The translations under genes and the position numbers were made by a program. A DNA stretch of 64,000 bases from Macrostomum lignano. Lineage: Eukaryota. Below the pieces are notes generated by a model. That model was given only the letters and a program-made list of their open reading frames with translations. It was not told the DNA's origin and did not search any database. The DNA lies in contig NIVC01001424.1 in the NCBI GenBank assembly GCA_002269645.1, forward strand, positions 124,001 through 188,000, read 5' to 3'. Positions 6,201 to 61,751 of the stretch are shown here, in pieces; the stretch's first letter is position 1; every line of letters begins with the position of its first letter.

Positions 6201-6288
6201 TTTGTTTTTAGTTAGTTTATTTAGTTCCATTTAATGAATAAGTTAGTCGTTACCGATATGTATCGAAAATCAACTCATCAAACCTCAC

Positions 6289-16640: not shown

Positions 16641-16730
16641 TTCAGCCTCACCCTTTCTCGTAGCTCTGCTAATAAAATTTAATTATCCTTTTCAGAAGTG
16701 AAAAATAATATTTCTATTTTCTCTCTTCAG

Positions 16731-17598: not shown

Positions 17599-18167
17599 CG
17601 CCTCCCATTGTGAACTGTTACTTTTAACTCAACAATACTGGGTGTGCCTTGTTGTTATTTTCTTTCCAAAATTATTTGCCTAGCTGCGAACTGTGATGGT
17701 GCATATTGCGTACTCGCGATTCAATAGCTTATACTTATTACTGTTTTACTTATTGCCTTCCGGTGTCAATGCTATTTATTGCGTGTAATATTATCGCAAA
17801 ATTCAAGTTCGGGTGTCATTATTTAGCTACTGCCGCTGTTCTGCATTACAATTATTATAGTACTTCGTATCTACTGACGTAACATTGTACCAAAAATTTT
17901 ACATTGCATGGCGCCAAAACCAATCTTGTTGAATGCTACTAGCGTAATAGCCGTTTGAATCGCTTGAAATACATTGTAATGCCTTGCTGTATTGCTTTTG
18001 ACGATCTAAACGACACTGGCTAGACTTCACTGATCCATATGCTCCTCAAGCAAGGTATATGGAAAACAGATTGAGCAGCAAACTTAGTGTTTGATTGATA
18101 GAGACATTGTATAGTTGGATCTTTGGATCACGGATAGAACCAAGGAATCTAGATCTGGAGGCATGCG

Positions 18168-19799: not shown

Positions 19800-20451
19800 T
19801 AGCTCATTTAGCCCAACCTCAAGAGCCAGAATTCCGAGTGGCAGTCGAAAAATTCTGCCCAGCCACTGAGACCATCAGTTCTGCGGCGCGCCAAGGGAGC
19901 CGACAAAATGATGATCATCGCATGCTACGACAGTTTTGGCATTATTCTCATCCACCGCATTTCTGAGGGCCAAAACATCAACCAAAAGTTTTATCGGAGC
20001 TTCATAACCCACCATCTTCGGCCTGCCTTGCGCAAAAAGCGGCCACACAGACCCTGGAACTTGGTCCACTCCTTCCGCACGACAATGCCAGTTCGCACAC
20101 AGCCCGCATTGTGCAGGACCTACAGCGGGACTATCAGTGGCATGGGAGGTGCTGCCTCATCCTACTTACTCCCCAGACCTCAGTCCCTGCGATTTCAGCC
20201 TTTCCCAAAGCTTAAGAACCAGCTTCAAGGGTATTTAAGGGAACCAGCATCCAGGCAGCGAGATCGGCCGCATTGCAAAAGACCTGTGCGAATCTGGCGC
20301 TGCTGACGGCGTCCACAAGTTGCCTGGCTGCTGGTAGCGCACGATTCAAACCAACGGAAGTTATTTTGAAGGTTTTTGAGCTGTTCACTGTTCTGACACT
20401 CGTTTGCTGAAAATTAATAAGTGTTTAATGAAACTTTTGAGATGACCCTCG
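19800..20451 (+). mobile_element. Tc1/mariner (DD34D mariner-type) transposase 3' remnant with right TIR, in the palindrome spacer
   Basis: Frameshifted segments PNLKSQNSEW...KMMIIAC, HDNASSHTA, HPTYSPDLSPCDF.LFPKLK, LPGCW*...NGSYFEGF*. Ends GAAACTTTTGAGATGACCCTCG, a mariner-like TIR. Confidence 0.88.
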
Positions 20452-21069
20452 GTATAGATGGAAGAATATCTTTAATGCCCTCACGCCTGCTATATGTACA
20501 CTGTACATTCAGAAGTTACGTGCTCTTTTAGCATGGTATTAGATACTCTACATGTATAACATTAAATACATTGAGTGCAAGATGCGTTACATGTACGTAG
20601 CTATATATACAGCATGCATTCTGTAGTCCTTCAACATTATTTTGGTTCGAGTGCCGCCGCTCTAATCTTGAGGTGCCAATGTTTAGAGTTCATAGTCCCC
20701 AGTCAAATTGCGGCAGTCACTTGTCGAAGGCCCCAAGGCCAAGACCCTAGGCCCCCTAAATACCATGCAGGATGTTGGGGACTGAGAGTCCCCTTTCGCG
20801 ACATTAAATAATTAGTAAATGATCGGAGGCTGAGCTTTATGCGCTGAGCCATACTGTAATATATGAGCCGTACCTTTTTGTAATCCAGTTTGCCAAAACA
20901 GTATATATACGTACATGTAGAACCAACTTCGGGCACTGCGAGTTCACTCGATTCAGTTGAAGGGTAGGCAGAGGCAGAGAGCTTCCAGCTTTCTGCCTTA
21001 AACTGACTGACTGAATTCATTCTCATAGCATCGCTCTATGCAAATAAGCCTGTCAGCTGTTATCAAACC

Positions 21070-21836
21070 AACAGCTCCGCTGCTTTCCGCCGCTCCCCCC
21101 AACAGCTCCGTTGCTTTCCGCCGCTCCCCCCAGCAGCTCCGCTGTATTCCGCCGCTCCCCCCAACAGCTCCGCTGCTTTCCGCCGCTCCCCCCAACAGCT
21201 CCGTTGCTTTCCGCCGCTTCCCCCAACAGCTCCGCTGCTTTCCGCCACTTCCCCCAACAGCTCCGTTGCTTTCCGCCGCTCCCCCAACAGCTCCGCTGCT
21301 TTCCGCCGCTCCCCCCAACAGCTCCGCTGCTTTCCGCCGCTTACACCAACAGCTCCGCTGCTTTCCGCCGCTCCCCCCAACAGCTCCGCTGCTTTACGCC
21401 GCTTCCCCCAACAGCTCTGCTGCTTTCCGCCGCTCCCCCAACAGCTCCGCTGCTTTCCGCCGCTCCCCCAACAGCTCCGCTGCTTTCCGCCGCTCCCCCA
21501 ACAGCTCCGCTGCTTTCCGCCGCTCCCCCCAACAGCTCCGCTGCTTTCCGCCACTTCCCCCAACAGCTCCGCTGCTTTCCGCCGCTCCCCCCAACAGCTC
21601 CGTTGCTTTCCGCCGCTCCCCCAGCAGCTCCGCTGTATTCCGCCGCTCCCCCCAACAGCTCCGTTGCTTTCCGCCGCTTCCCCCAACAGCTCCGCTGCTT
21701 TCCGCCACTTCCCCCAACAGCTCCGTTGCTTTCCGCCGCTCCCCCAACAGCTCCGCTGCTTTCCGCCGCTCCCCCAACAGCTCCGCTGCTTTCCGCCGCT
21801 CCCCCAACAGCTCCGCTGCTTTCCGCCGCTCCCCCG
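21070..21836. repeat. GC-rich ~31-bp minisatellite, right arm (inverted, different unit order and length)
   Basis: CCCCCAACAGCTCCGCTGCTTTCCGCCGCT units. Confidence 0.95.
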
Positions 21837-22403
21837 CATGCCTCCAGATCTAGATTCATTGGTTCTATCCGTGATCCAAAGATCCAACTATACAATGTCT
21901 CTATCAATCAAACACTAAGTTTGCTGCTCAATCTGTTTTCCATATACCTTGCTTGAGGAGCATATGGATCAGTGAAGTCTAGCCAGTGTCGTTTAGATCG
22001 TCAAAAGCAATACAGCAAGGCATTACAATGTATTTCAAGCGATTCAAACGGCTATTACGCTAGTAGCATTCAACAAGATTGGTTTTGGCGCCATGCAATG
22101 TAAAATTTTTGGTACAATGTTACGTCAGTAGATACGAAGTACTATAATAATTGTAATGCAGAACAGCGGCAGTAGCTAAATAATGACACCCGAACTTGAA
22201 TTTTGCGATAATATTACACGCAATAAATAGCATTGACACCGGAAGGCAATAAGTAAAACAGTAATAAGTATAAGCTATTGAATCGCGAGTACGCAATATG
22301 CACCATCACAGTTCGCAGCTAGGCAAATAATTTTGGAAAGAAAATAACAACAAGGCACACCCAGTATTGTTGAGTTAAAAGTAACAGTTCACAATGGGAG
22401 GCG

Positions 22404-23271
22404 GTGTCAGATCAGTTCTCTCAGTGCGAGCTCTCTAAAGGCGGCAACAGCGTGCGCCTGGCCAATCACCTTAGCGCCATCCAACAGGCAATCCGCGACG
22501 CGACTCGCCCGGCCGTAGCCCCGGTGCCAGGGGCCCTGCATCGTGAGCAGCAGGACGTCTTGCACTGGTTGAGAACAGTAGGCCTCCGCGTGGATGGTGT
22601 GGCCCGCCAGCTGATGTCTTCGCCTGCGGAGGGTCTCGCTAGGTGATCGCAGCAGTCTGGCAGCGCGGCGTTCTGCAGGACGACTCGGATGGAGCGGAAG
22701 GCCGCCCAGGCCAGGCCCCTGCGTCGCGCCAAGTCCTCCTGGACACTGGGCACAAGATCGCCGGGGTACGTGAAGCACGCGCAGCGAGGTAGAACTGCTG
22801 CATGACCGTCGGGTGTCCCAGCAGATGATTTTGATAGGCAGCTCCGCAGGTACAGTCATCACCTCCGTCTTCTCGATGTTCACCGCTAGCCCGACCGATG
22901 CCGCAGCTGCCACCAACCAGGCTGTCTAGCATGCGCTGAGCTCCCTCAGCCGTAGAGGCGGGCAGCGCCAGGTCGTCGGCGTAACCCATGAGTGACAGCC
23001 GCTTCTCCGATTGGCGGCAGCTTGTTTGCCGGCACAGTAGGAAGCTGTCCTCATCTGTTGGCAGGGCCCTACGTAGCACCCCATCGAGCACCAACACGAA
23101 ACGGTTGGACGCAAGCGTGTCGCCTTGCAGCATCCCTGAGGTCGTGTTGAACAGGTCGGATAGTCCGTCAGGTGTCACCACGGCGGCCAGGGTCTCCTAG
23201 AAGAGAGTTATGGTTGCTGCGACCAGTCGCTCCGGCACGTGGTATGACCTCAAGACCGGTGCGAGGACATT
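22404..23271 (-). mobile_element. Mirror copy of the RTE-like RT fragment
   Basis: Translations identical to 16731-17598, including the disablements. Confidence 0.9.
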
Positions 23272-23359
23272 CTGAAGAGAGAAAATAGAAATATTATTTT
23301 TCACTTCTGAAAAGGATAATTAAATTTTATTAGCAGAGCTACGAGAAAGGGTGAGGCTG

Positions 23360-24960
23360 AATAGGAAAATAGGGTGGGGCTGGAGGGGCGAAGAGGTTGA
23401 GGCTGGGGTAGGAGAGGGTGAGGCTGGAGGGGAGGAGAGGATGGGGCTGAAGAGGAGAGAGTGGGCTGGGGAAGAAGGGGGTGGGGCTGGAGGGGACATG
23501 AGAGCGAGGCTGAAAGAGAACAAGGGTAGGTCCTGGAGAGAAGGATAGGGGCTGGAAGAAAGGAGAGGGTAGGTTTTTGGGGAGAAAAGGGTGAGGATTC
23601 AACTGGAGGACATAGTAGGGCTAGAGGGGACGAGGGGGTATTGAAGGAAAGAAGAGAGTAGAGGCTAGAGGGTAGGAGGACGAGGTTGGAGGAGAAAAGG
23701 TGATGTTAGAGAGGAGAAAGGGTGAGGGCTAGAGAGGAGGATGAGGCTAGCGGAGAGAAGAGGGTGAGGCTGCAGGGAAGGAGGGTGGGGCTAGAGGGAA
23801 GGAGGGTGGGGCTGGAAGGTAGGATAGTGGAACTAGAGGCTAGGAAGGTGGGGCTAGAGGGTAGGAGGGTGAGGCTGGAGGGGAGGAGGGTGAGGCTGGA
23901 GGGGAGGAGGGTGAGGCTGTAGGGAAGGGGGTGGGGCTGGAGGGAAGGAGGGTGGGGCTGGAGAGGAGAAGAGGTTGGAAACTGGAGGGGAGGGTGGGGC
24001 TAGAAAGTAGGAGGGTGGGGCTGGAGGGTAGGTGGGTGGGGCTGGAGTGGAGAAGAGGGTGGAAGCTGGAAGGGAGGGCGGGGCTGGAGGGAAGGAGGGT
24101 GGGGCTGGAAGGTAGGATAGTGAAACTAGAGGCTAGGAAGGTGGGGCTAGAGGGTAGGAGGGTGGGGCTGGAGGGTAGGAGGGTGGGGCTGGAGTGGAGA
24201 AGAGGGTGGAAGCTGGAAGGGAGGGCGGGGCTGGAGGGTAGGAGGGTGGGGCTGCAGGGGAGAAGAGGGTGGAAGCTGGGAGGGCAGGGCTTGAGGGTAG
24301 GAGGGTGGGGCTGGAGGGAAGGGGGTGGGGCTAGAGGGTAGGAGGGTGGGGCTGGAGGGAAGGAGGGTAGGGCTAGAGGGTAGGAGGGTGGGGCTGGAGG
24401 GAAGGAGGGTGGGGCTGGAAGGTAGGATAGTGGAACTAGAGGCTAGGAAGGTGGGGCTAGAGGGTAGGAGGGTGAGGCTGGAGGGGAGGAGGGTGAGGCT
24501 GGAGGGGAGAAGAGGTTGGAAACTGGGAGGGTGGGGCTAGAGGGTAGTAGGGTGGCGCTGGAGGTAGGAGGGTGGGGCTGGAGGGGAGAAGAGGGTGGAA
24601 GCTGGAAGGGAGGGCGGGGCTGGAGGGTAGGAGGGTGGGGCTGGAGGGAAGGAGGGTAGGGCTAGAGGGAAGGAGGGTGGGGCTAGAGGGTAGGAGGGTT
24701 GGGCTGGAGGGGAGAAGAGGGTGGAAGCTGGAGGGGAGGGTTAGGGCTAGAGGAAAGGGGTGGGGCTGGAGGGAAGGGTGGGGCTAGAGGGAAGGGGTGG
24801 GGCTAGAGGGAAGGGGTGGGGCTGGAGAGAAGGGATTGGTCTAGAGGAGAGAAGAGGGTGGAAGCTGGAGGGGAGGGTGGGGCTAGAGGGAAGGAGGGTA
24901 GGGCTGGAGGGTAGGATAGTGGAACTAAAGGCTAAGAAGGTGGGGCTATAGGGTACGAGG
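23360..24960. repeat. Polypurine (GA-rich) degenerate minisatellite, right arm
   Basis: GGGGCTGGAGGGTAGGAGGGT-like units. Confidence 0.92.
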
Positions 24961-25072
24961 GTGAGATTATGAAAAAAGGATAAGAATTTAATGGGAAAAC
25001 ATTGTGGGACTGGAGAGGAGGGTAACACTGAAGGGAAAAGAAGGTGGGGCTTTAGAGAACAGAATATGGGCT

Positions 25073-25839
25073 TTATCTTTAATTCGATCTGCCCGAAGCA
25101 GTGGAAAATCGGCCTGGTTCGCTGCATGCTCCACCGGGCTTTTGAAATTTCTAACAGCTGGAAGAATTTCCATGAAGAAGTGACTAATCTCACTAAATAT
25201 TTCCGTATGAATGATTACCCAGAATCTCTGCTTAGCTACCATCTTAAAAAGTTTCTCAACCAAAAATTACATTTGCAAAAATCCAATGTGAATGAACAAC
25301 AGCAAGATCAGTTTCAGACCAAATATAGGCACCTTTCTATCCCCTACTATGGCGAGGCTTCGATCAGTTTTAAGAAAGCGCTCCTCCGGTGCTTTAAGCA
25401 GTTTTCTAATGATAATCTAAGAATCACCTTTTATTGCGATAAAGTTGGCCAGTATGTCTCTAAGCTCAAAAGCCGTGTGCCTCTGCAACTACGTGCAGGT
25501 GTCGTCTACCAATTCCAGTGCTCTGTTGATCAGAGAGTTACCTACCTAGGTAAATCGAAACGGCACTTGTATGTTAGGGGCAGAGAACACTGGTTAAAGC
25601 CATCAGCAGTGCAAGACCATCTTATGGCCTGTAGTGAATGCGCCAACAGTGAACAAAAGGATAGGTTTACTATCATACACAGTTGCAATATCGATCATCG
25701 CCTTAAGATTATTGAAGCTATGTACATTAAAAACTGGCAACCAACTTTAAATAAACAGTTGGGTTATTCCGGGGCCAGTGCTCTCCTGAGAGTGTTCTAA
25801 ATGTACACCCACTACCCGGCTCTCTCTCTCTCTCTCTCT

Positions 25840-25897
<58 letters not shown>

Positions 25898-26091
25898 GTC
25901 TCGGTTTTGATCTGTTGACTCCCCCCGTGTTTTGTTATTACAATCTTGTGCATCACTGACTATCTGCCACTGAAATGTATTTATACTCTATGTTTTGACT
26001 TAAATTAAATAAATTCCAATCTGCCCGATGATGCCTAAAGTTAGGCGAAACATGTCGTTCTAATGAAAATGCTCGCAATCTCCTTTCTTTT
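25073..26091 (+). mobile_element. 5'-truncated Penelope-like element (RT C-terminus + GIY-YIG endonuclease), 12-bp TSD
   Basis: Open frame FIFNSICPKQWKIGLVRCMLHRAF...GVVYQFQC...TYLGKSKRHLYVRGREH...LKIIEAMYIK...PTLNKQ, stop at 25800. TSD AGAATATGGGCT at 25061-25072 and 26092-26103. The empty site (single AGAATATAGGCT) is seen in the left arm. Confidence 0.93.
26020..26061 (+). ncRNA. Degenerate minimal type-I hammerhead ribozyme in the PLE 3' region
   Basis: CCGATGA-t-GCCTA aagt TAGGC-GAAAC-AT-GTC. The core has U4>C and stem I is weak. Confidence 0.6.
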
Positions 26092-27181
26092 AGAATATGG
26101 GCTAGAAAGAAAAAGGTAAGGCCTAGCATTAGAGGGAAAGAAAAGATCACAACTAGAAGGATATCATCACTTTATATAGTGGCAATGAATAGTTATTAGT
26201 TAGTCTATAGTTGATTAGACTATGGCTAATTATTTCAAAAAGATTTTTATTCTAGGCATGCTTTATCTTATATAGTTATATTCCTACTTTTGATTCCCAT
26301 AAAACAATATTATTAAAACATTTTAATATAAAACATTATAAACATAGGCTAGGCTTAGGTCTTATAAATAGATAGGCCTAAGCTACTTAAATTAAAGAAG
26401 AACCAAATGAATTTTAGATCCAAAGAAAAAAAGATTCTTATTATCATTAAAAAAACATATTCTAATATAGCATAAAGGCTTTATAACACAAAAGAAAAGA
26501 AAATATTTTAGACTTAGACCTATTAGTCAATAGTAGAAAATAATCAATGATTTGAAATAGAAGGCTATTAGATTTTAGAAGCCTAGAAAGCTTATTAGCC
26601 TAAATATGCATTTTGCCTAGGCTAAACAAAAAATTGGATAGTTATGTAAATTTTAAATGATTCCAAAGTCTAAAGAGCAATAAATAAATCTGTAAAGTGT
26701 AAGCCTAACTAATTGGCAAGTGGTAAAATTTTATGTTTAGGCAGGCTTATTTTAATTTAGCTAGCTAAAATGCAATTTGAATAGTACACTTGTTTACCAA
26801 TATCACCCGTGGCTTATAGAACCGGCTGGTGCATACGTGCGCAAATGTATTAAATACAACGTAAAATAAAGCCAGAAATACATGCAGCGCTACACCGCTG
26901 CATTCATTACTGGGCTGCAAGGCCGTGTTTTCCAAGGATAGAATGGCCTCACGAGTGGGACACGGCTGGCTGCGCGCATTTTAAATTCTTTCATAGAAAA
27001 CGGAATTCTACCCGTATTCTATAACACGGTAACATGTTACGGCTCGATAGACATCGGGAGTTTTTCATGTTATATTGCCGATGTTTATGGAAAACATAGG
27101 TGTTATTAACACAATGTATTCTTTATTAACTGTGTATCGAAACCTATAATAAAGAGAAAAGCAAAAATCAACAAATTTAGT

Positions 27182-35087: not shown

Positions 35088-35356
35088 GTGAGAATTCAGT
35101 TACTATAATGCACTTCTTTCCAACCATTGAGGCTAGTTACAGAAGGTTGAGCCGAGATATTACTGCAGAAAGTGAGTGGAACACTTTTTTTGAAAGAAGG
35201 AGAGCATTGTAAGATGGTTTGCTTAGTTGATTGCGTGTGCGCACATTCACTAGCTCTTATGTACATTTGCTCGATGTACAATGATAATATATAAGTGAAT
35301 GCCTTGGCGCCCTGGGCAGCCAAGAGTCGGTCTACGCCTTAAGCCAGTTTCTCGTT

Positions 35357-35895
35357 GGGAAGACGATTTCGTGACCAGCGGGCACGGTTGTCCTGTCTGC
35401 TACCTCAATGGCGAATACACAGCTACTTGCTGCCGATGACTCCATTTTTACTTGCTGACCGCACACAGTGAGCGTTTGGCGATTGCAGTCGATGACGCAG
35501 CCACAGTTTGCCAGGAAATCTGCACCCAGCAAAAAATCCTTGGCCAGATTGTCGACAACTAAAACTCTTTGTCGAACCGTTGCCACACCGAAACTTAGCT
35601 GCACTTCCTGCCAACCACAGGCAGCCAAATAGTTACCGTCTGCTAGCTTCAACTGCACCGGAGTCGTCAAAGGCAGGAGCCTCTCATTCAGCTTGCGAAA
35701 CAGGGAACTTGACATCAAAGACTGGGAACACCCAGTGTCAACTAGACAGCTGGCAGGGACACACATCGGCAGGATGCGACAGTTTACCAGCATGTTGGCA
35801 CCAGTGGCTGAGCAGGACACCTCTACGACTGGTTGCGCCGGGATTCTCACTTGCGGAACGGCACCCCGGCGGTCGCCGCTCCATCGAAGTTTCCC
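35357..35895 (-). CDS. Retropepsin-type aspartic protease (truncated pol, -1 frame)
   Basis: LVDTGCSQSLMS active site and FLLGADFLANCGCVID. The frame runs into the inverted LTR and stops at 35332. Confidence 0.9.
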
Positions 35896-36617
35896 GACTT
35901 CTGAGTGCAAAATTTTTGAACATGGCCCGGCCTACCGCACTTCCAGCATGTCACAACTCTGCGTCTGTCGCCGCTCTGACGATGATCCTGGTCCTTTGAC
36001 TCCCAGCGGCTGAGCTTGTTGGACAGCTCCTTCAGGGACCGTTGAATTCCGACTGCAAAGGCTTCGGGAACCTCAGCAGCTAGAGCCGTAGTGGTGTCTA
36101 TTTGCGACTGTATCGATTCCACGAATCGCCCTGTTTCAACTGTATCTGCGAATGTCGCCTTTGGCTGCATCTGCGTCTGCATTCGCACAGCTGGGTCCCT
36201 CAATCCGGATAGAAACCGACCTTTGAGAAGCTCGTCCTTCGCTGTCACCGACGTCTCCTGCTCGGCACCTGCTTTCGTCTCCATCAGACTCGGGAACGCA
36301 CGCTTTGCCGCAACGATCAGGGCATCGGAATAGTCTGCAACCGACTGACCGTCCTTTTGAGTCAGATTGAAGAACTGCGCCTGCTGCTCAGCAGAGGATG
36401 TTGATGGCCGAAATCGATTTTTCAGAGCCTTCTCAAAGTCGTCGTAGGACAGGGCAGCATCCAAATTGTTGGCCGCTTGATATGATTTGTCGTCGAAGAA
36501 TGACAGCAGAGCATTCTTGCGCTGATCCACAGGAAGAGATGATGCGAAATTGTTGAATCGTGCCAGCCAAAGTTCAAAGTCTTGTCCATGCTGGTATTGA
36601 GGCGGCCGCAAAAACAT
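35847..36617 (-). CDS. Gypsy Gag with CCHC zinc knuckle
   Basis: Uninterrupted ORF. PPQY...DFELWLARF, QKDGQSVADYSDAL, FLSGLRDP, CWKCGRPGHVQKFC. First ATG at 36617; the frame is open from 36653. Confidence 0.92.
   Translation of the reverse strand: MFLRPPQYQHGQDFELWLARFNNFASSLPVDQRKNALLSFFDDKSYQAANNLDAALSYDDFEKALKNRFRPSTSSAEQQAQFFNLTQKDGQSVADYSDALIVAAKRAFPSLMETKAGAEQETSVTAKDELLKGRFLSGLRDPAVRMQTQMQPKATFADTVETGRFVESIQSQIDTTTALAAEVPEAFAVGIQRSLKELSNKLSRWESKDQDHRQSGDRRRVVTCWKCGRPGHVQKFCTQKSGNFDGAATAGVPFRK
35855..35895 (-). promoter_or_regulatory. Programmed -1 ribosomal frameshift signal (gag-pol)
   Basis: Slippery heptamer G GGA AAC (35895-35889), 6-nt spacer, then an 8-bp stem GGAGCGGC/GCCGTTCC, in the gag/pol overlap. 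Confidence 0.8.
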
Positions 36618-36916
36618 GTTGACAAAACTAGCTTGGGGCTGAGTCACCGCCACTGTAGGGCTCTCTGCACTGCCTTAATTTTCAGTCATAGCTGCCGCTG
36701 CCATCAATGTAAGAACAAGCGAAAACGAGAAATTGGCTTAAGGCGTAGACCGACTCTTGGCTGCCCAGGGCGCCAAGGCATTCACTTATATATTATCATT
36801 GTACAGCGAGCAAATGTACATAAGAGCTAGTGAACGTGCGCACACGCAATCAACTAAGCAAACCATCTTACATTTCTAATAAGAAGATTAAAATTTGCCT
36901 GACCGAACCCACCCAG

Positions 36917-45885: not shown

Positions 45886-46122
45886 TTTGATTGCACAATT
45901 TACGGAGAGAAAAAGAAAATGAAAAAATAGCATAATTATTTAAATTTTCATAATTTTTCTTTGATCCAAAATTTTCGCGCTCCCTTCATCGCTGCTTTCA
46001 GCTTTATATTTTTTGCCATCTAACTACAATCGTTTCCTCAGTCGCATTTCGAAGAATCATCGAGACACAAATCTGTCAAAGGTCTTTTTCATCTCGACAA
46101 GCACAGGATTAGAGAAGCCTCA

Positions 46123-46615
46123 TCAGTAGATCCGGAAGCTGGGGCCCATTGTGGACTTGATGTACAGAGCCCGAACATTCTGCCAGTTCTTCTTCAGCAG
46201 CGACACCAAGAAGTTGATTGACAAGGTGATATTGTTGATGAGGTCACCGGAGGTCATCTCCTCGTGCCCTATGGCCACGGCAAGGCACAGCACCTTCTTC
46301 ATCTGGAACTTAATGGTGGCCTTGACCTCCTCCACCTTGCCAACCAGAGAGTCGCCGTGAGTCACCATGGTGGGGAACTTGCCAGCCTTGTTGAGGCCGG
46401 GGCCCAGCACACGGGGAATCTGCTTGATGATGGAGTCCGAAGCCAGGAAGGCGTCGTATTGCTTGGCCAGCTTCTTCACCAGCTTCTTGTTCTTGTTCAG
46501 CTTCTTCAGGGCCTCGATGTCCATGCAGGCCAGTCCGTTGGCTGTGGCCTCGTCGCAGTGCTGCTGGTCGCCAAGGACGCAAACCTTCATCTTTGGCTTG
46601 GGCACGTTCTTCAGC
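46123..46615 (-). CDS. RPL10A: 60S ribosomal protein L10a (uL1), copy 1, exon 2
   Basis: [14 protein letters not shown]...[11 protein letters not shown]...[16 protein letters not shown]...[18 protein letters not shown]. The spliced CDS is 651 nt (216 aa). Confidence 0.97.
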
Positions 46616-46739
46616 CTGCATGGCAACCGGGTTGTTTACCTTAGCAACGCATGTGTACTACAGGTAATTAACGTTACTAACATAATTAACACAGTGGCGA
46701 ATCGAAAAAATATATGAATAGTAGCAGCTGAGAGTCGCA

Positions 46740-49572: not shown

Positions 49573-50357
49573 GGCTCATTCCATATAAGCATGGTCGTAA
49601 CATGACAGGTTATTTTTACTTATAAAATGAAATCTAATAATAGAATATACTAAACCAATATTTTAAATGAAAGATTATTTTGTCTAGAATATATTGATAG
49701 AGTTTCATATAGATATCATCATTAGTATAGATGCTATTAAACCTTAAATGACACTTATGGTCGTAACGACAGGATTTTTGACATATAGAAACTAAAAGGT
49801 AAAAGTCTTATAACATTTTTCATTTTTGATATTTTGCAATACATTTTTAAAATTTGACTAAGAACATCTTTAGAAATCATACTCTTTTATTAGAATATAT
49901 AAACTCAAAAGGCAACAAAGATACAAAAGAAAAGGCAGCCTTATGGTCGTAACATTATGGTCGAAAATATTTTTCTCTGTCAATTCAGTAACTTTGAGGT
50001 ACTAATACATTAAAAATATAATAGATTATTTGGTCACCAATGCTTTTATCTGATGATGCAAGTACTATACTTTTATCTATAGTTTGTTTCAACCTTCAAA
50101 AGCTTTCTATTTGTTTTTAAAAGGTACAAAATCTTAATGATGTATTTTGCTTCGAAAAATGTCCAAATTTTTACAAAAATGACTTTTTGCCAATTGATAA
50201 CATACTAATCCAACATTTTACCATTCCTTTATTCTTAGATTGTATATATTGCACAATATAAACATTTGGTAAAAAAATAGGCTAATTAGGCAATGGCAAG
50301 CAAAAATATTGACTTATTTCTATTTTCCAAATATGTCCATCTTATATGGAATGAGCC
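49573..50357. mobile_element. Non-autonomous DNA transposon (~785 bp), copy 2, inverted relative to 11232-12023
   Basis: Same 17-bp TIRs; the internal sequence aligns end to end with copy 1. Confidence 0.9.
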
Positions 50358-50924
50358 TAAATCAACACTCAAGAACATTTGTGTGACCTCCCCCTGCCCC
50401 CTTTCTACACAAAAAAATGTGAAACAAAAAATGCTTTATCATTGCATTCTCCCTCTGATCCTACACTTGGCCTTTTTGGTAGTCTTTCCATTCCCTCTTT
50501 TGGTCCCATCTCTGTTCTTACTGTTAGTCCCTTTTCCTCTTTTTGTTATTTTTTGCTGCTTTTCATATGTTGGCCCAACTCTGGGACTCCTCATTCAACT
50601 AGTTGTCCTATTGCTTGCTCCACTGGGTGCCCCATATGTTGGTGTCTTTTCTATAGATATATAGATATATTACAACTATGCCATAATGCCAAGATAACCA
50701 GCTCAGCCTTGTCAGCTAAAGCAGATTGCAGAGCCCACCCCACCAACCATAGAAGCCATGCATCTGCCACTTATGACTGCTATCCTTAGGCACTCTGGGT
50801 CAAGCTTTTTTCTTGCATCAATGCACAGCACCCTTGCACCTGTGGTAGAATGGGCTACCATTCCATTAACTGAACAATTCTTTTTGATTTGCCTATCACT
50901 ATTATTATTATTGCTACTCTTATT

Positions 50925-53900
50925 TGTGGTAGCAGTTATTGTTTCTAAGAAAAGCTAGTTTTAAAATGTCACGCGAAAATTATGTTTGTTTTACTTTACA
51001 AAATATTCTTAGACATTTGATGTTTGTTTAAATACACACAAAAAGAATAGTATAAATAGGAGTGAGGTTTGAGGTTAGGAGAATAACTTGTGCACTTGTG
51101 TTCACTTGTTCAAGATATCTCAAACATGTTTAAGTTCTTAGATCATTGTTTATTTCTAAGAGTATTGCAGAGAAGGTTGAGAGTTCAAGAGTTCATGCAA
51201 AAGTAGTACTAAGAGTAATTGCTGTGAGCTTCTAATCTTGGTAATGCCTAGACCAGAGAGGAAATACATATACTAGTAAGACTGCTCAGGTCATATAGTA
51301 GAGAACACTACCAGAATATTGCTAAGAATGCTACCAGAACATTGCTAAGAATGCTACCAGAACCTTATTAAAAATGTTACCCAGAAGTATATGGAATTCT
51401 AAGAAATAGTTAGCTATATTTAGACAGAGCTATAAGATCTGTTACAACTTGGCAACATAATTTAGAGGACAGAAGTAAGCCCTAGGACAACTTTGGTGGC
51501 TTAACAGCGGGATTGAAATATATAGAGTAAGAAGAAATACCCCTGCTACACATTTTGCATTCTGTTATAGCTAATTTCATTTAATCTTTGCCTATTATTT
51601 CCCTTTGCTATTTTGTTCTGTACTATAATTATTTGACTATCATGACTGACAACCCAATGTTTGGAGGTACCAAGTTGGCATTTAGCCAGGAGTTAAAGAA
51701 GACTTTTGGCCTCATTAACAGCTATGCTAAATGACTGCTAAACCAAGAGCTGCTAGATGTGCTTGATATAAATGAGGCACAACTTAGCCTAGGACTACCT
51801 GACTAGGTTGGCTACCTCAAGCTACTCACAGCATTTATACTAGCCTAGGCAGATGGCTACATGACCTTATAGAAGAGATCAGTGCTATGCCACTAGCCTC
51901 TAAGCCAGAAACTATCAGGTTGCTAGAATTGGATCAGCATGCAATGCTGCTCTTGCTACTCTCTAATTAGACAAGTGGCTCTAGTCAGCCATCAATTTTG
52001 GAGGAGGTATCACATATATACAATCCTGACTGCATGTAGCAGTTGACTCATTAACTGAGTTGCTACTATGGGAGCTCATGAACAAAACTGGAGCCTATTA
52101 CCTAAGCAACTGCTACCACTAGAGCAGTTTGGCACAGCTATAAAGGCCATAGGCGGCCAGTCAAGTAGTTAAAATGACAGAAAACTTGTAAAATAAATGT
52201 TTGCAATATGAGATGACTGGCTAGAAACTTGGCCTAAAGTGTTTGATAGTTGCTCTGTGTGTAGACCAGACCAGGCAGCTATTCTGGGATATGGAATATT
52301 GACAACAATCTTAAAAAAAATGCCATTAATGCCATTATAGCCAGCTTAGCCCTATCAGCCAAAGCAAATGATAGAGCCTGCTCTAAAAACCATAGAAGCC
52401 ATGTGCATGCCACCCATGGCTATTATCCTTATCCTATCCCTTCTTCCATCAATGCATAGTACCCCCGTGCCTGTGGTAGAGTGGGCTATCATCTAATTAA
52501 CTGAACCCTGCTAACAACTTGATCTTTTTAGTCATCTTTCCTTTTCCTTACTTGGTCCTATTCTTGTTCCCACTGTTGGTCCTTTTTCTGGTATTTTACT
52601 ATTTTAGATACCATATCAAAGTACCCCTTTGCTTTTGCCATGAAGAACTAGTAGGCCAAGATGATAATAACTCTGCTGCAAGAATGAGTGTTTTTTATCA
52701 CTAGAATCCTAGTGTATATTCATTCCAATCAAGAGAAACAAGGCATAAGTTCCAACATTTCTATGAAGTTTATGATATCCTGGAATAGACCATGATACTG
52801 CCATATTTGCCTTGGGCCAATAGCCAAGCTAAACTGTGCAATAAGAACATCAAGAAGGTGCTCACTTGTCTCCTAGAAGACCATTAGCAATGGGACAATA
52901 TTTTGCCAACTGCTTTGATAGCCCTAAGATCAGTAATCAATTGTAGTGGGTTCTTGCCACACTATGTTTTCTATGGTATGCCTTCTTAGTACCCAAACAA
53001 TAAAATCTTAGACCAACTGAACGTAGCTATTGACCTAAAGTACATTGCCAAGCATTAGAAAAGACTAGCCAAGACTGATAGAATTGTACAATAGCGACTA
53101 CAAGCCGAGATCTAACACCAACCAATAGGAAAACTACAAGAAGTAGCCAAAGCCCACATAGCTGCAGCCTGGCAACCTAGTTTGCCTGGCCAAACCAAAG
53201 CTCAAACTGGGAGAGCTGTCAAAGTTCCACTGGCCATACAAGAGTATATATAAAGTCATCAAGATTGGAAAAGTGGCTTATTAAGCAAGCAATAGTGTGA
53301 CAAGGATGTTTAGACAAAATGTTATAACAAAATCATTAAGATACCACAAATAAGGCAGGCAGACTAACTACAGGAGCCATCATGCTAGACTGAGTGGCCA
53401 ATGCAACCTTATAAGTTGAACAAAGATTGATTTGCTTTTTAGCACAAATAATATTATGAAATCCTAACATTTTTGTTTTGAAAATGTATTGCTTTTTTAA
53501 CAATGCAGACCTAGCTAATCTACATACTCCAGAATAGCAGGCCGCAGCTCAGCCTGATCTGCAAGGCAGCCAGCTGTTTGAGCCAAGCTTATGCCATCCA
53601 GAAGTGCTAGCTAAAGACAACCTAGATCTAAGATCAACATAGAAGTGGAAATAAAAGGTAATTAACTGCAATTTAATTTTGTACCATGGATAACTAACTG
53701 CTAATTTATTCGCTCTTATTATAAATAGTCAAAATTGTAAGTTGTGACTAATTTGTTTTTCTATTGCCATAAGCTTTCTTTGTACCCATTAAGTTTGTAC
53801 CCATTGCTTACTAAAAGCAATTTCATTTCCAATGTGACTTTATGCTTAAAGGTAAAAAAAGTATTTTTTCCAATATGACCTTATGATTGTAGGTAAAAAC

Positions 53901-56375
53901 AAATATTTTTCTTTTCAATGTGACCTTATGCTTGAAGGTAAAAGCAGTGTTTTAATTTTTGTTAGTTTTCTTATGCTTTTAGAATAAAAGCAATATTTTA
54001 ATTTTGTCAGTTTCTTTATGTTCAAGGGTAAAAGCAGCATTATATTTGTTTCCTTATGCTTTTTGGGCCTTCTCCTCAATAGAAAGGAGCATTTGAGGTG
54101 AATTGACCCTTGTTATTTGTTTTGATCAAGCCTGAGCCTAGGAACTCTATAACAATCTGTTCCACTTACCACTGTTATCTGATCCTGCTCTCTGAATTCA
54201 ATTCAATTAATCCCCAATGGCCAATGAAGCAGAAAGACTAAAGCGACTGCAAGATGAACTTAGTTTAAGTGCTAGCAAAGAAGGCAAGATTATTAGCAAA
54301 GAAGAAAACAAACTGCCTATTCCTGATTGGCAGACAACTAGACCCCAGCCTCCTGGACAAAGGCCCCGGCCATCTTCAGTGGTGGTATGGCTGAAAATGT
54401 CACCTATAATGACTTCCAAAGATTTGGTCGACCTTCTGCAACACTATGCCGACACCCCAGTGTAGATATCCCTAGCCTTGACGAGACACCAATCTAAGAA
54501 TAGCAAAACATCAATCATGCTGCCCCAGAGTGACACTCCTAGCTCCAGTATGATGCACCATCTGGGACCCAGGCCATGACCAAGATTGTCCACCAAGCAA
54601 CTGCCAGCTAGACAGCTGCTAACCGAGCAGCCGCTATCAACTGTTTCGCTGCCCCTCTCAAGACTAACAGTTAGGCAGTTGCCACCAACAGAATTGCTGC
54701 CCCAATCAAGTTTGCCAGCCCAGCCTCCTTGCAACTCTAGGCCGCGATCTAGATTGCCTGCCAAACAGCCACCGCCTAGATAGCTGCAGATGGTGACACC
54801 ACCTACGCAGTATGGTCTGCAACCTCAACATTAGTCTGCTGCTATGCCACCTATCTAATGTCACCTTCTGATACCAGATAATGCTGAGCCCAACCCACTG
54901 AACAAGATAGGAGGCAACTTCAGTATTGCCATTGTTCATCTGCCCAAAGCTCGCCGCAATGAGTACTGCCAACTAGCGAACAACGTCAAAGAGCATATTG
55001 TTTGCATTGGCCACCTTCGTATAGAAGGCAGACCCTTGCCAACCTGAGAGGCTCTACTGCCCACGCTACAAGCCTTATGTTAAATGCAGCTATTCTAGGC
55101 TATTGCTGCCTGGAAGCGGGCAGTAGCCTATGCCCTGCATCCAGCATCCAACAGCATCCAACAGTACTTTTTGAGGATTGTCTTTCTGCGCTTAGACAAG
55201 GCTCTGCCACAGTGGTTGCAAATTTGGTCTCACTTACGCACTCTGTGTTCGCAATTCAGCCATTGCAAGGCTGTGGCTGTGCTACAGGAGATTGCCAAAT
55301 GTCTCCAGCGCATGCTGCAAGCTGATGCCTAGCCAGCGCAGCGGCAACTAGTCAATATAGAACTGTGATAGTGTTTCTTGCAGCTCAGATGGCCATTTTA
55401 TCAAGACCTGCCCCGGTCTTATGGCTTTTGAACTTTTGACATTGAACATTTCTACAATGCCTATTTTCTTTGAACTTTACTATGCCTATTTTTGTAATTG
55501 ACACCTGTATTGACTATCTGATTTAGCATTTGTACTAAATATATTTTATACTTTCTTCAATATGATATCTTCCAATGCTGAGTGTACTACTATGTATATT
55601 GTGTTTTCATAAATTTTTCACTGTAGTATTGCTTTCATTCAAAATTCATGTTAAAGAGGAGGAAAGTTGTAGAAGCAGTTATTGTTTCTAAAAAATACTA
55701 GTTTTAAAATGTGAAAATTATGTTTGTTTTATTTTACAAAATATTCCCAAATATTCAGTGTTTGTTATAAATACATGCGAAAAAGTAGTAAAAATAGGAG
55801 TGAGGTTTGAGGTTAAAAGAATAACTCATTTGCTAGCTATAAGCTCAAAACATGTTTGATAAATCATTCTCAGATCATTGCTCATTTCTAAAGAGTATTG
55901 CAGAGAAGTTTGAAAGTCGGTAATTAAGAATTCATATAAAAGTAGTACTAAGAGTAATTGCTGTGACCCTCTAATCACGGTAATAAGAGAAAGTACATAT
56001 ACCAGTAAGACTGCTCAGGCCATATACTAAGAATGCTATTAGACCATATACTAAGAATGCTACCAGACCATATACTAAGAATGCTACCAGAATACTACAA
56101 GAACACTACCCAGAAGTATATGATATTCTAAGAAACAGTTAGGAACATTAAGGCAAAAATTTAGTGTTAGCAATAGAAACTTAATAGAGGGAAATAAAAA
56201 ACCTGTAACAACTTTGGTGGCAATTAGTAGGATAGTTAGAGGACAGAAATACCCCTGCGACAACTTTGGTTACAGCAGTGGGATTTATAAAGAGAGAGCC
56301 AAAATGCCTATGACAACTTAGTGGCTTAATGGTGGGAGTGAAATACATAGAGTAAGAAGAAATAGACCTATTACA
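50925..56375 (+). mobile_element. Decayed LTR retroelement (~5.4 kb), no recognisable RT/IN
   Basis: Direct repeats 50925-51550 and 55668-56375, both TG...CA. Polypurine tract AAAGAGGAGGAAAG just 5' of the right LTR. Interior ORF relics are riddled with stops. No TSD seen. Confidence 0.75.
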
Positions 56376-56463
56376 ATAATAATATATTTGAAATGAATTA
56401 TTCATAATATAAAAACTTAAAATGTTTTATAATAAAAATATATATAATAATAGGCCCTATAAT

Positions 56464-56907
56464 CCATAGTCGGGAAGGTGGCATAGTGTGCGCTGGAACT
56501 ATTTTGATGGCTTTTGAGCACTGTGCACCGTGCACCGTGAAGAAAAGATTTTTTGCGCTGCAGCGCGCCATGATAAGGTAAGTCTAAGGTAAGGTAAGGT
56601 AAGGTAAGGTATTTATTCTACCATAAGGAATTTACTGTAGACAAATTTGAATTTCATTTACGTATTTTATATTGTGATTTACATAATTTACATAATTTTA
56701 TTTTACGAATTATGGAATTAGGCCTGACACTATATATTTTGCAAAGTATAATGAAGTGTAACTGTATATATTTTTTAGCGCCATGCGCCATATGCACTGC
56801 CAGAGCATTTCTAATTTTTCCTTGTACGCCGTGTGCGCCGTGTGTGCCAAAAAAGGGCCAATTTGTGCCGGAAAATTAACCAAAAACTGCCACCTTCCTA
56901 GCTATGG
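56464..56907. mobile_element. hAT-type MITE (444 bp)
   Basis: TIR CCATAGTCGGGAAGGTGGCA / TGCCACCTTCCTAGCTATGG; 8-bp TSD CCTATAAT. Confidence 0.88.
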
Positions 56908-57229
56908 CCTATAATATAATACTTTTAGTGTTTATGCCAATTTATTTCTATAAGGCCATATAAATCAAATATATCACTATCAGTTTATTATTAAGAAACC
57001 ATTGTTAATAATAATGCTATGCAAAAATGAGATAAATATACAACAAGGTATTTATATTAATGTTATGCTTGGCTACTTGCCTTATTAAGTAAATAAACAT
57101 ATCCTATAGGTCAAGCTACAATAAAAGCTAGGCCTAAAAACAAAGGGAATGATTATAATATAATATAATTCCACTTTAGCATCTATCTTCCTAATTATTA
57201 CTAATAAACTTGGTGTGTGGCCATACATA

Positions 57230-57383
57230 TGCAACCTTGGGATTCACCTGGCTATTTCTATTGGCAACACATACATGTAAGTCACTATTGGTTGAGAGCA
57301 GTCACGTGACTACTATTCTGTCCAATAGCGACTTACATGTGTGTGTTGCTAATAGAAATGGCTAGGTGAATCCCTAGGTTGCA
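57230..57383. mobile_element. 154-bp palindromic MITE/hairpin
   Basis: ~62-bp arms TGCAACC...CTATTGG / CCAATAG...GGTTGCA with 6 mismatches; central AGTCACGTGACT palindrome. Confidence 0.8.
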
Positions 57384-57560
57384 CCCAAGCATGTGTGTGG
57401 CCATTTTGGTCATATGCAGCAAGTATCCCTAGCAAAAGATGGCTATGGCCTTTATTGGTGAAAGACTATATGAGGCAGGCCCAATATTCTTATACTTATA
57501 CCATTTCAAATTTACGCCAAATTTCTTAGTTACCGAATTATTTTGTTTAAACGAAACATT

Positions 57561-59002
57561 TGTTATAGCGAAGAAAAATTATTTTGTTTAAATTAATGAA
57601 GTAATATTTTGTTTAAACATGTCCCGCGCACCTGTCCTCCCCCCAGTAAAAACCTATAAATACAAGCATTTTTCGGGCTTTAAAACTTCGCCCACCGTTT
57701 CCTTGATTTGGTTAAGAAAAGCAAAACATGTTGTCTTAGTCACTGGAAAGCAAGACAGGAAAGCAAGCTGTTAGAAGCAAGAAAAGGAGTAAGAGGCCAG
57801 AGAAGCTATAAGAAGCCAGAAAAAGCCGTAAGAGGCCAGGAAAGCTGTAAGAAACCAGAAATAGACGGTTGACGAGTCGGGCAACTCCTTCCTAGGGAGC
57901 CCGCAACTAAATATAGGGAATTAATAGTAGTAATAATAATAGTAATAAAATTCATAACTACATGTAGACCAGTATTTGCCACTCGACACTGCTACCAGGG
58001 TGACTTGCATAGATTCAAGGAGTCCTTAGATTAGAATTCTAGACTTAATGTTTTCTAAGAAACAATAATTGACTAAGTAATTTTATGGAGTAATAACTAT
58101 TCTAAATTACAACAACTTGATTCAGCAGCATGACTATAAACTAGGAAGTAGATACATCTACCACAACTTAGTAACAGTAGTGGGATTTTAACAGACAAAA
58201 ATAACCCCTATAACAACTTGGTGACATCGGTAGGATAATCTAAAATAATTAAACACCCCCTGGTACCCATAGTCAGGAAGGTGACAGAGTGTGCGCCGGA
58301 ACAAATTTTGGCCTCTCCCAAAATTGTGCGCCGTGCGCCGACACAAAAACCCTCGTGTGCGCCGTTGTGCGCCCGCCACTACCTGCCTTGCGACAATAAA
58401 AGACCTTTTTTTACAACATAGCAACAATTTTTGTGCGCCAATATACGGGACGGTTACGGGCTATCTATATTATATTATGAGAAATTGAGATCGTTAAACC
58501 GAATATAGAAATTTAAAAAAATTTTAATTTAATTTCTAATTTTTAAAACAAAACAAACATAAAAAGTAAGCAAATGGCAAAAACAAAGGTAAAAAGGAAA
58601 AGGAAACTATTTTTTTTTATTTTTTATTTTTTTGTAGAATGCAGTGTTACATTAGATGGAACAGTGAATAGTGTACTGTAACAAGTAACAACTTACATCG
58701 TTACATGGGATCGCCACAAGGGTAACGCTGCATGTGGCGCGGCGCCCGCCGCGCCGCGCCGCCATGCGCCGGTGTCCTCTGGTGTGCGCCGTTGTGCGCC
58801 GCTGTGCGCCAGTGCGCCGCTGTGCGCTGTTGTGGCGCGCCGCTGTGCGCCGTTGTGCGCCGTTGTGTGCCCAAAAACTTGAAAAAAGGGCTTGTGTGCG
58901 CCGGAATTTTCCGACCAAACTGCCACCTTCCTGACTATGGCCTGGTACAACTTGGTGGCATAGTGGAATAAAAATACAATAATAGTAAAGACCCCTATAA
59001 CA
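57561..59002 (+). mobile_element. Solo-LTR-like element (TGTTATAG...CTATAACA) interrupted by a MITE
   Basis: Perfect 8-bp terminal inverted repeat, TATA-like CTATAAATA, internal AAGAGGCCAG tandem, U5 array like that of the 50925/55668 LTRs. No TSD seen. Confidence 0.65.
58267..58940. mobile_element. hAT-type MITE (674 bp), same family as 56464-56907, GTGCGCC-rich
   Basis: TIR CCATAGTCAGGAAGGTGACAG / CTGCCACCTTCCTGACTATGG; 8-bp TSD CCTGGTAC. Confidence 0.9.
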
Positions 59003-61165
59003 TATATAACAAGATTAGGCCTACTAGCCAACAAATTGGCCCTTATAGTCTAGGCCTAATAGCACTAGGCCTTCTAATAATCAACCATATCTCCAAGAGA
59101 TACAGAATATCAACTAGCATAGCATAAAGCAATTCTAGTTAACATAATTTAGGTGCTGCATATAGAGATCTCTTATCATTTTAACAAACTATTTTACAAT
59201 ATACACCTAAAATAAGAAAGCTTAGCTAAAATAATAATAGTGCAGAAAGTGTTAAAAAATTGATAAAGATAAAAATATCAATGAATAGGCCTGGTTATTC
59301 TCATTAAAAAATTCTTTGATGCAAAAGACATCTGTGTTGTTTATAGAAATTGTGTGAGCACTTGAGCAAGTTTTGCAATCTGATGGAGTGATGATTGCAG
59401 TCAATGGCAACAGCAAATATGGTTCAGGCATAAGCCAAAAAGAGTGTTGTCAGATTCTAGATAGAAGATGACGCTTTATTTAAATGAATCAAGCCTTTAT
59501 ATTATAAGCATGTATAAAATGGGGGCAATCCAGGGCATACACAGCTGCAGCTAGGCTAGTACATATTGCATATCTACAGGTCTAGCTACAGCTTGTAGTG
59601 TAGGCCCTAGTGCCACAATTTTGGGCCATAGGGCCTAGTGTCACATCTACTAATATAGGCCTACTAATATTCAAAGATAAGTAAAATAGTTTCGTTTCAT
59701 CTACATTTTACTTATATTTAATAAACTCTCTCAACAGCAGCATTTATAAAATTTCTTTTTATAATCTTAGATTCTTAGTAAATTTTAGCAATGCAAATCT
59801 TGTAGGCCCATAGCGAGGCCTTATGAATCAAATGATTCAAATAAATGCCCACACCGGCGAATGTTCGCGACGCGCGATTCCAAATTGATATTTTAAACAA
59901 TATACTGAAACGCTTGTTTTATTTACATTAGCTTAACAACTAAAAGTTAATAATAAATTTCAGAATAAGAAAATAGTTTATAAATTAGTTCTAAAAATTA
60001 CAGACAATAGAGAATATAACAAAAATTCGTTACAGAATAAGAACCCGTGTGCAAAAATTATGATAGTAAGAACTGATACGGAAGGAAACATTTGCTCATG
60101 TTTCTAATGTCTGTAAGCAACTTCATCACTGCGACTTTTTTAGTTCCTCCAGTATCACTTAATTACAAGTCGATTTGGCTTAACTATACATGTAGACGCG
60201 GCCTCAAAAGTAAATACAGCAGGTACTCTGCTGCAGTACACGTTCATACTTTTTCTTTGATATACATGTAGTCAAATTGTGCTGGAAAAACATATATACA
60301 ACTTTATACATTCAATAGGTTTTAGTATCAAAACCCAAGTCAAAAATTAAATTAGCTGTTTACGTCTAGATGATCAAAATTAATGAACCCAGAAAATCGT
60401 TAGAATTAATTATAATGTATATTTATATTACTGCCTGAACACTCGACACTGTATTCAACATTTGCCGCAGTCAAATTTCCCTTAACATTTCGGTCAGGGG
60501 CAGATGCAGGGGGGGGGGCATGGCTCCCCAGCTATAAGCAAAAAAATGAGCCATACTTTTTTGGCCTGTGTAACTAACATGAATTAGAAATGCAATTTAG
60601 GGCTTTTTCCAATGTTGGTTGTACATGTACGTAGTTCTTTTGTATAGCTTGCCCCCCACTCAATTCTTTTCTAGGTCGGCCTCTACCGAAAGTTAACTGA
60701 CAGTAAAATATCAAAGGCAGTCCAATCTCAGCTGAGCAGGAAGCAGGAATTGCTTAAGTCCTTGAGTCACATATCGATTGGTTTAAAACTTCGCATTCTT
60801 GTTACAATCCATAGCTAAGCATATGATAGCTCGTACAGTGGTACTTGTGTCAATTTTAAATTCAATTGAATTTATTTCACCGCTTTTATATGACACGAAG
60901 TTGCGTCGACAGTTGTGTCGATCTGTTTCTGCTTTGGAACAACAATTGTCCAAACTTTCCAGACCCCTCCCCTAAAAAAACTTCAAACAAAGACCGCTTC
61001 AACAAAGGAATTCTTGTTCCATCTGTAAAGAGCCAAACGGACAACGGGCTTTTTACGTTTTGTCAACTTCGATTTATTTTGCCGAAATAATTGCCCAGCA
61101 AAACAAGACACAAACTAGCGAAGTTTCTCAATACAATCTCACGCGGGTCATGCTGCCTAACCTCA

Positions 61166-61658
61166 TCAGTAGATCCGGAAGCTGGGGCCCATTGTGGACT
61201 TGATGTACAGAGCCCGAACATTCTGCCAGTTCTTCTTTAGCAGCGACACCAAGAAGTTGATTGACAAGGTGATGTTGTTGATGAGGTCACCGGAGGTCAT
61301 CTCCTCGTGCCCGATGGCCACGGCAAGGCACAGCACCTTCTTCATCTGGAACTTGATGGTGGCCTTGACCTCCTCCACCTTGCCAACCAGAGAGTCGCCG
61401 TGAGTCACCATGGTGGGAAACTTGCCAGCCTTGTTGAGGCCGGGGCCCAGAACACGGGGAATCTGCTTGATGATGGAGTCCGAAGCCAGGAAGGCGTCGT
61501 ATTGCTTGGCCAGCTTCTTCACCAGCTTCTTGTTCTTGTTCAGCTTCTTCAGGGCCTCGATGTCCATGCAGGCCAGTCCGTTGGCTGTGGCCTCGTCGCA
61601 GTGCTGCTGGTCGCCAAGGACGCAAACCTTCATCTTCGGCTTGGGCACGTTCTTCAGC
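61166..61658 (-). CDS. RPL10A: 60S ribosomal protein L10a (uL1), copy 2, exon 2
   Basis: Same protein as copy 1; 93-bp intron 61659-61751. Confidence 0.97.
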
Positions 61659-61751
61659 CTGCATGGCAACCGGGGGTTACAGTATTGTTTATCTTAGCAA
61701 CAGAAAACTGAATATTTTTTTCATGTTTTGTGATAAAAAACCTCTGCTCAC

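Follow-up and report, generated by a model that had tools for sequence, protein, structure and literature searches.

Arrays of LTR-end and primer-site-like blocks within the LTRs of two retroelement families of Macrostomum lignano

Two families of LTR elements in the window, the 64,000-nucleotide stretch of Macrostomum lignano DNA that we analysed, carry arrays of short blocks inside their LTRs, and these arrays are real, family-wide and polymorphic. Canonical retroviruses and Ty3/gypsy elements possess a single U5-linker-primer-binding site (PBS) junction, in which the PBS lies beyond the LTR. Each block described here resembles such a junction, in that an LTR end in CA is followed by a linker of 3-4 nt and ~18 nt complementary to a tRNA 3' end; it differs in that the LTR itself contains 2-4 such blocks, which are not the same in all copies. 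We consider it probable that the blocks are former U5-end/primer-site junctions that were duplicated by reverse transcriptase (RT) template switching, drawn into the LTR as priming moved outward, and then shuffled. The array is most likely, in the main, a tolerated and self-renewing by-product of reverse transcription, although it may have a function or reflect exchange between families.

Anatomy of the arrays and their host elements

The LTRs of family A are long direct repeats that open with TG, close with CA and carry short terminal inverted repeats, such that the ends mirror the starts. As summarized in Table 1, its right LTR holds a series of units, each made up of a linker of 3-4 nt, a PBS-like segment of 18-20 nt, an A-rich spacer and an LTR-end motif. 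The linkers of R1, R2 and R3 measure 4, 4 and 3 nt, respectively, and the first LTR end before them lies at 56210. The initial annotation had described three units past this first end, placed inside the LTR and opening with complements of tRNA 3' ends. All three are present at that place, each closes with the end motif attributed to it, and the complementarity is borne out against a non-host tRNA panel, most clearly for R2, which agrees at 17 of 18 positions with tRNA-Leu(TAA/CAA) ends from viral contigs. Two features go beyond that description: the same LTR contains a decayed fourth unit (56162-56210), and a different LTR carries an array of its own, with four units (58118-59002).

The junction motif (LTR end, linker and TG) occurs 11 times in positions 50000-60000, and 9 of these 11 lie inside the arrays; 500 dinucleotide shuffles averaged 0.8 and never exceeded 5, and none of the 500 held three junction motifs within 120 nt. 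Since the motif was defined after the arrays had been seen, the shuffle test overstates these odds. A search with a 14-nt junction, allowing up to 3 mismatches, returned 9 matches compared to 5.4 expected, and missed the second array, in which the linker is 3 nt.

The left LTR of family A differs from the right by 60 transitions and 25 transversions (K2P 0.16). Its units follow the order (2-like), 1, 3, while those of the right LTR follow the order 0, 1, 2, 3; the 2-like stretch (L0) resembles spacer 2 of the right array (core against R2, p 0.0015) and lies ahead of the first PBS in the left LTR. The outer flanks of the two LTRs show no target duplication and the left LTR's own 4-nt flanks match at 3 of 4 positions, and thus the two LTRs may be separate insertions belonging to one family. 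Both carry a separate 23-24-bp repeat.

Between the two LTRs lie 4.1 kb with broken coding remnants. No Pfam family, integrase included, was detected in any of the six frames of 51552-55668, and neither RT nor RNase H was found there; the integrase remnant likewise gave no match in two word-based protein searches. Family A is therefore only tentatively Ty3/gypsy-like, as suggested by the look of the integrase tail. The extra frame upstream of the polypurine tract matched no Pfam family, and an Atlas search with one of its relatives gave no usable match.

CpG in the family A element stands at 0.17-0.22 of expectation, compared to 0.60 for the window. Among 40 of 144 contig variants listed, 26 were C-to-T type losses in the window copy (10 at CpA, 9 at CpG and 7 at CpT, by present neighbour), and therefore this copy is more decayed than many of its relatives. 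Across 50925-56375, C-to-T changes are numerous not just at CpG but also at CpA, and TpA/ApT stands at 1.30-1.37 in the LTRs, a pattern that recalls repeat-directed mutation. Two pieces that lie upstream of the left LTR align with the interior at 72-73% (50465-50875 and 52320-52605), with their order swapped, suggestive of nested or rearranged copies.

The second array, in element B, lies 2 kb downstream of the right family A LTR and comprises four blocks with a 3-nt linker. The body of element B did not align with family A (local scores of 37 and 43, with shuffle maxima of 55 and 52), and a sensitive BLAST of 57440-58266 against the window returned the arrays only (70% over 84 nt, E 1e-6). 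A distant kinship of element B and family A is possible, given a few short words in common. The MITE that splits one of the blocks of element B is GCGCC-rich and is present in two copies (56464-56907 and 58267-58940), each with terminal inverted repeats of ~20 nt and exact 8-nt target duplications; both targets begin with CCT, and one of them is an array end motif. The length of its target duplication suggests that this MITE is hAT-like.

Table 1. Positions of the LTRs, array units and internal remnants in the window
Feature	Position	Strand	Basis or remark
Left LTR of family A, 626 nt, possibly solo	50925..51550	+	507 of 592 aligned columns identical to right LTR
L1, type-1 unit with PBS part deleted	51450..51489	+	Core resembles that of R1 (p 0.0005); PBS part within shuffle range
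L2, type-3 unit, final end of left LTR	51494..51550	+	24 of last 28 nt shared with R3
Broken integrase remnant, end of catalytic core	52795..53004	+	phmmer to foamy-virus integrase chains, best E 2e-4 (weak)
Broken extra frame between integrase and polypurine tract (env position), ~400 codons with stops	54217..55428	+	Last ~100 residues match three unnamed proteins, E 1e-12 to 8e-9
Polypurine tract, 14 purines, 1 base ahead of right LTR	55653..55666	+	Sequence
Right (3') LTR of family A, TG...CA, 708 nt including array	55668..56375	+	Polypurine tract before, unrelated repeat DNA after
R0, decayed innermost unit: weak 18-nt PBS-like segment, spacer, first LTR-end motif	56162..56210	+	Decay-aware score 13.5, p 0.04; joints in other copies
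R1, 48 nt: 19-nt PBS-like segment, 18-nt spacer core, LTR-end motif	56215..56262	+	
R2, 49 nt: 18-nt PBS-like segment, 20-nt spacer core, LTR-end motif	56267..56315	+	17/18 to viral tRNA-Leu ends
R3, 57 nt: 20-nt PBS-like segment, 26-nt spacer core, final LTR end	56319..56375	+	PBS-like segment 2 nt longer than tRNA 3'-end match
LTR-like element B, probably solo; start uncertain	57471..59002	+	57471 from matching 4-nt flanks; 57561 from 8-nt terminal inverted repeat
B1, innermost unit, PBS part decayed	58118..58165	+	PBS p 0.54
B2, 18-nt PBS-like segment; spacer and end resemble family A type 1	58169..58215	+	PBS p 0.003; core against L1 p 0.0005, against R1 0.007; 20/28 with L1
B3, 18-nt PBS-like unit, end motif split by MITE	58219..58949	+	MITE 58267-58940, 8-nt target duplication
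B4, outermost unit, 17-nt PBS-like segment, final LTR end	58953..59002	+	PBS p 0.19

A role for the arrays as structured RNA was considered and dropped, since RNA folding of the arrays was no more stable than that of shuffles (z 0.79 and -0.49). A local hairpin is predicted at 56250-56283, formed by a block's end motif and the PBS-like site that comes next. We likewise rejected a mini-LTR reading, in which each block would be a TG...CA unit between linker 'target duplications', since the block opens with a tRNA complement and is too short for a promoter. A pattern scan for this architecture found no instance in viral contigs; in metagenome contigs it returned 3 loci, all of them one unrelated glycine/asparagine-rich protein repeat.

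The window as a whole is rich in minisatellites. On the minus strand at 35208-36872, gag, zinc knuckle and protease frames lie between 149-nt inverted repeats (98%), an unusual boundary for a gag-protease element, with no RT seen. A coding stretch for ribosomal protein uL1 is present in two copies that are 97% identical (46118-46648 and 61161-61701). Against solved chains, uL1 scores 267-275 bits for the best ten, which are from animal ribosomes, and 196-243 bits for the thirteen that follow, in keeping with an animal host. A large nested inverted repeat at 14371-26970, with arms 16632-18166 and 21836-23370 at 99.9% and further arms outward, encloses a transposase-like frame (19812-20306). Finally, a 62-nt inverted repeat with a 30-nt loop at 57230-57383, probably a small MITE, gave 2 weak, sub-threshold Rfam matches to mir-249 (57247-57366).

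Primer-site-like segments, spacers and end motifs

PBS-like segments were scored against 125 distinct tRNA 3' ends taken from ARAGORN calls in viral contigs; this panel is not drawn from the tRNAs of the host, and its seeding with Leu-like and Ser-like patterns biases it. Against these viral tRNAs, a decay-aware score gave p 0.003 for 3 of the 10 sites (R2, B2 and B3) and p 0.03-0.04 for 4 (R0, R1, R3 and L2), with 3 failing to reach significance (L1, B1 and B4). With the plain score and the same non-host panel, R0 and R1 were not significant (p 0.22 and 0.08, respectively). R1, R3 and L2 need gaps of 1-2 nt to fit the panel ends. The initial annotation had called the segments tRNA-Leu-like. 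The 17/18 agreement of R2 is compatible with Leu, and equally with Met, as the same ends also occur in viral tRNA-Met within this non-host panel.

No tRNA match was found after the three final LTR ends (4 windows, p 0.30-0.86, viral tRNA panel); for the last CA of the left LTR (51550) the values were p 0.3-0.65 with this proxy panel. ARAGORN called no tRNA genes in the window, and an Rfam scan of 50800-59100 at E up to 1 found no tRNA family.

In all 3 arrays, the lowest decay-aware score is that of the innermost PBS (R0, 13.5, which is within 0.5 of R1 and R3; L1, 12; B1, 11.5). The outermost PBSs (R3, L2 and B4) match tRNA ends worse than the middle ones (R2, B2 and B3). A 20-nt PBS form recurs in two unit types and in several copies, and at least two PBS types are present in both families.

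We compared the spacer cores after removal of the end motif. Within the right array, 2 of 6 pairs gave p 0.02 and 4 of 6 gave p over 0.1; the cores are thus mostly unlike one another, which argues against their being one recent tandem duplication. The description of the spacers as unique proved too strong, since the R1 core matches L1 and the R3 core matches L2 (p 0.0005 each, 2000 shuffles). Across arrays, 12 of 66 core pairs fell under 0.05, with the B4 spacer taken 2 nt short, which bears on the pairs with B4 alone. These include matches between the B2 core and family A type 1, which extend beyond the values in Table 1 to R0 (p 0.003); the PBS type of B2 differs from that of R1. The B2 and L1 ends agree without gaps at 20 of 28 positions, and 5 of the 8 differences are transitions. 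When sequences were anchored at CA, 16 of 55 pairs shared 17 or more of the last 28 nt, and all 21 pairs of whole spacer plus end exceeded shuffles (p under 0.025). The B1 end is the reverse complement of the first 8 nt of the left LTR, and the L2 end matches the start of the right LTR at 7 of 8 positions. The spacers thus form a small set of similar-looking sequences, and their recurrence across many copies, documented below, indicates inheritance and not fresh capture in each copy.

Differences among copies

We aligned contigs from four runs (X1, X3, X9 and X11), each belonging to a different study, to 55600-56450 at 80% likeness; X1 may represent the source sample, and X11 may be RNA. We obtained 397, 424, 266 and 223 aligned contig records per run, respectively, most of them under 95% alike, and it follows that family A is multicopy. 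In X1, the summed contig depth over the array ranged from 1433 to 16716, compared to 120-176 for near-exact contigs of the locus, which is not to be taken as a copy number.

The evidence on joints comes from 15 of 18 joints listed, in short contigs, and several joints have fewer than 30 letters on one side or unknown letters between. In both X1 and X9, the first LTR end passes straight to unit 3 (56216>56321, with 83 letters on the short side, and 56214>56333). In X9 and X11, the first end is joined to a PBS followed by spacer 2 (56219>56291). Unit 2 is repeated, with a 20-nt PBS, in X1 and X3 (56319>56273), and one contig of X3 places a linker and type-1 PBS after unit 3 (56376>56213). Joints starting at 56145-56153, found in all four runs between them, lead from the LTR body directly into the PBS of unit 1, 2 or 3, such that in other copies a PBS follows the LTR body directly at the position of R0. 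Loose ends behind 56233 and 56238 run from the type-1 PBS into sequence other than spacer 1; among the 24 of 442 loose ends listed, several different ends stand ahead of the type-1 PBS and two other sequences come after it, and none of these 24 falls at an inner CA. Taken together, the contig joints of the four runs indicate that unit number and order differ between copies, in agreement with the earlier suggestion of template switching, which predicts such differences.

Origin and meaning of the arrays

From the anatomy of the blocks, their place inside the 3' LTR, the variation between copies and the presence of a second family, we infer the following sequence of events. RT would copy the last ~30 nt of U5 and then switch to just behind the PBS of a co-packaged RNA, duplicating the block of end, linker and PBS; alternatively, a slip at plus-strand transfer would make the duplication. 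If the outermost PBS then primes, the inner blocks would be copied into the U5 of both LTRs, with the outermost CA serving as the integration end. The inner PBSs would no longer be re-copied from tRNA and would decay. Whole blocks would subsequently be gained, lost and reordered through switches that are out of register, or through unequal recombination where blocks share the end-linker-TGG junction.

In the standard model of reverse transcription, the RNA lying upstream of the priming PBS is the template for the U5 of the 3' LTR. Because the 3' LTR of family A holds all of the blocks and is followed by unrelated repeat DNA, priming by this model took place beyond all of them. Descent of the blocks from former junctions is further supported by the U5/PBS junction geometry of every block, by end motifs that mirror the LTR start, and by the copies in which the type-1 PBS is followed by sequence other than spacer 1, which is the expected look of a terminal PBS with its leader. 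Several observations count against it. An intact 5' LTR that ends in a PBS and leader is absent from the window. Polarity is partial only: the innermost PBS is the weakest in each array, yet block order is permuted, the outermost sites are imperfect and the middle PBSs surpass them. Random decay leaves the recurrent 20-nt PBS form unexplained, and the presence of four blocks in each of two families with non-aligning bodies may reflect selection.

Selection is central to a multi-primer arrangement, in which the blocks are kept for several primer sites, suited to different isoacceptors, and for several usable integration ends, so that priming could begin at an inner site or at the outer one. We regard this as unlikely. 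In its favour, the middle PBSs retain near-complete 18-nt matches (R2 at 17/18; B2 and B3 at p 0.003), four blocks are kept in each of the two families, and at least two PBS types recur in both. In engineered retroviral (HIV) vectors, two PBSs on one RNA can reportedly both initiate (Voronin and Pathak 2004); such vectors differ from the present elements in being artificial and in lacking a natural array or a repeated integration end. However, 4 of the 8 non-innermost PBS-like sites are not 18 nt long (R1, 19; R3, 20; L2, 20; B4, 17; that of L1 is deleted), the last block forms the end of each of the 3 LTRs in the window, and the loose ends listed include none at an inner CA. In the initial annotation, each block was instead suggested to record a capture, a PBS from one RNA joined to the terminal ~30 nt of the U5 of a different LTR family, so that the array would log the elements packaged together, which departs from our preferred reading solely in whether the donor RNA came from another family. 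This we judge to be quite unlikely. One cross-family match, of L1 with B2, points towards exchange: the B2 spacer resembles family A type 1 despite LTR bodies that do not align and a PBS type different from that of R1, and the mostly dissimilar cores of the right array fit the same idea. This single match nonetheless came from a comparison of 66 pairs of A-rich 17-26-mers, with a p value at the test's floor; ends often agree at 17-20 of 28 positions, which fits old common descent, and the spacers recur in many copies. A broader proposal, that several LTR families trade U5-end/primer-site blocks by co-packaging and keep them as a selected, reshuffled cassette, would make the array both a heritable record of the elements and primer tRNAs met and a source of alternative primers and integration ends; we hold this to be unlikely.

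Amplification of a ~50-bp piece holding the LTR end and PBS by DNA slippage, followed by decay, would make the array an ordinary minisatellite. The abundance of tandem repeats in the window, the separate 23-24-bp repeat of both family A LTRs and the elevated similarity of all 21 whole spacer-plus-end pairs are in keeping with such an origin, which we nevertheless consider highly unlikely, given that TRF called no tandem array at this place even at a score of 30, that in both families the limits of the blocks fall on the U5/PBS junction, and that different block types are reordered as wholes. We give the least credence, and very little of it, to the idea that the extra PBS-like sites act as a decoy, soaking up the 3'-tRNA fragments (3'-tRFs) that silence LTR elements via the PBS. 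The initial annotation named an 18-nt human fragment, which it assigned to tRNA-Leu-AAG. This fragment is a listed tRF in PMC12025293, and mouse LTR elements are repressed by 3'-tRFs through the PBS according to PMC12853362; the latter paper also reports that PBS-derived sites in 5' UTRs confer repression, and more sites would thus be expected to add silencing.

A literature search covering open papers by exact phrase found no description of such arrays. Of the systems with which they can be compared, the U5-linker-PBS junction is treated in section 3.6 of PMC10886601. The nearest published natural case that we found is the MAL-type variant of HIV-1 (PMC3185550), a stable natural variant present in 14% of isolates, in which a 23-nt partial duplication of the PBS likewise shows that a duplicated primer-site segment can persist in nature; in contrast to the blocks described here, that duplication is partial and single, and lies downstream of the PBS, outside the LTR and without a new LTR end. 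Helenus and TRIMp3 (Kojima 2024, PMC10886601) are animal LTR elements that similarly hold tRNA-related sequence inside the LTR, in their case a tRNA-like promoter sequence unrelated to the PBS, and they are short non-coding TRIMs. The LTRs analysed here hold antisense 3'-end complements and LTR ends instead, with no tRNA gene called, and family A, with LTRs of 626-708 nt, 4.1 kb between them and coding remnants, is not a short non-coding element. The term 'PBS-like' denotes an ordinary single site where it is used in PMC4580426. Set beside a CRISPR-like record of acquisition, the arrays have spacers that recur between copies, a single cross-family match and partial polarity.

The similar layout in two non-aligning families suggests a recurrent process over a one-off event. 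Annotation tools and models of reverse transcription treat the LTR ends and a single PBS as fixed landmarks, and arrays of this kind would mislead calls of both LTR boundaries and PBSs. An LTR that swallows its own primer sites would represent a route to LTR extension and to a change of primer tRNA or integration end, with the old one kept. Being short, distinct and reordered, the block types would also directly mark the template switches that co-packaged RNAs undergo in a natural population, within families and perhaps between them.
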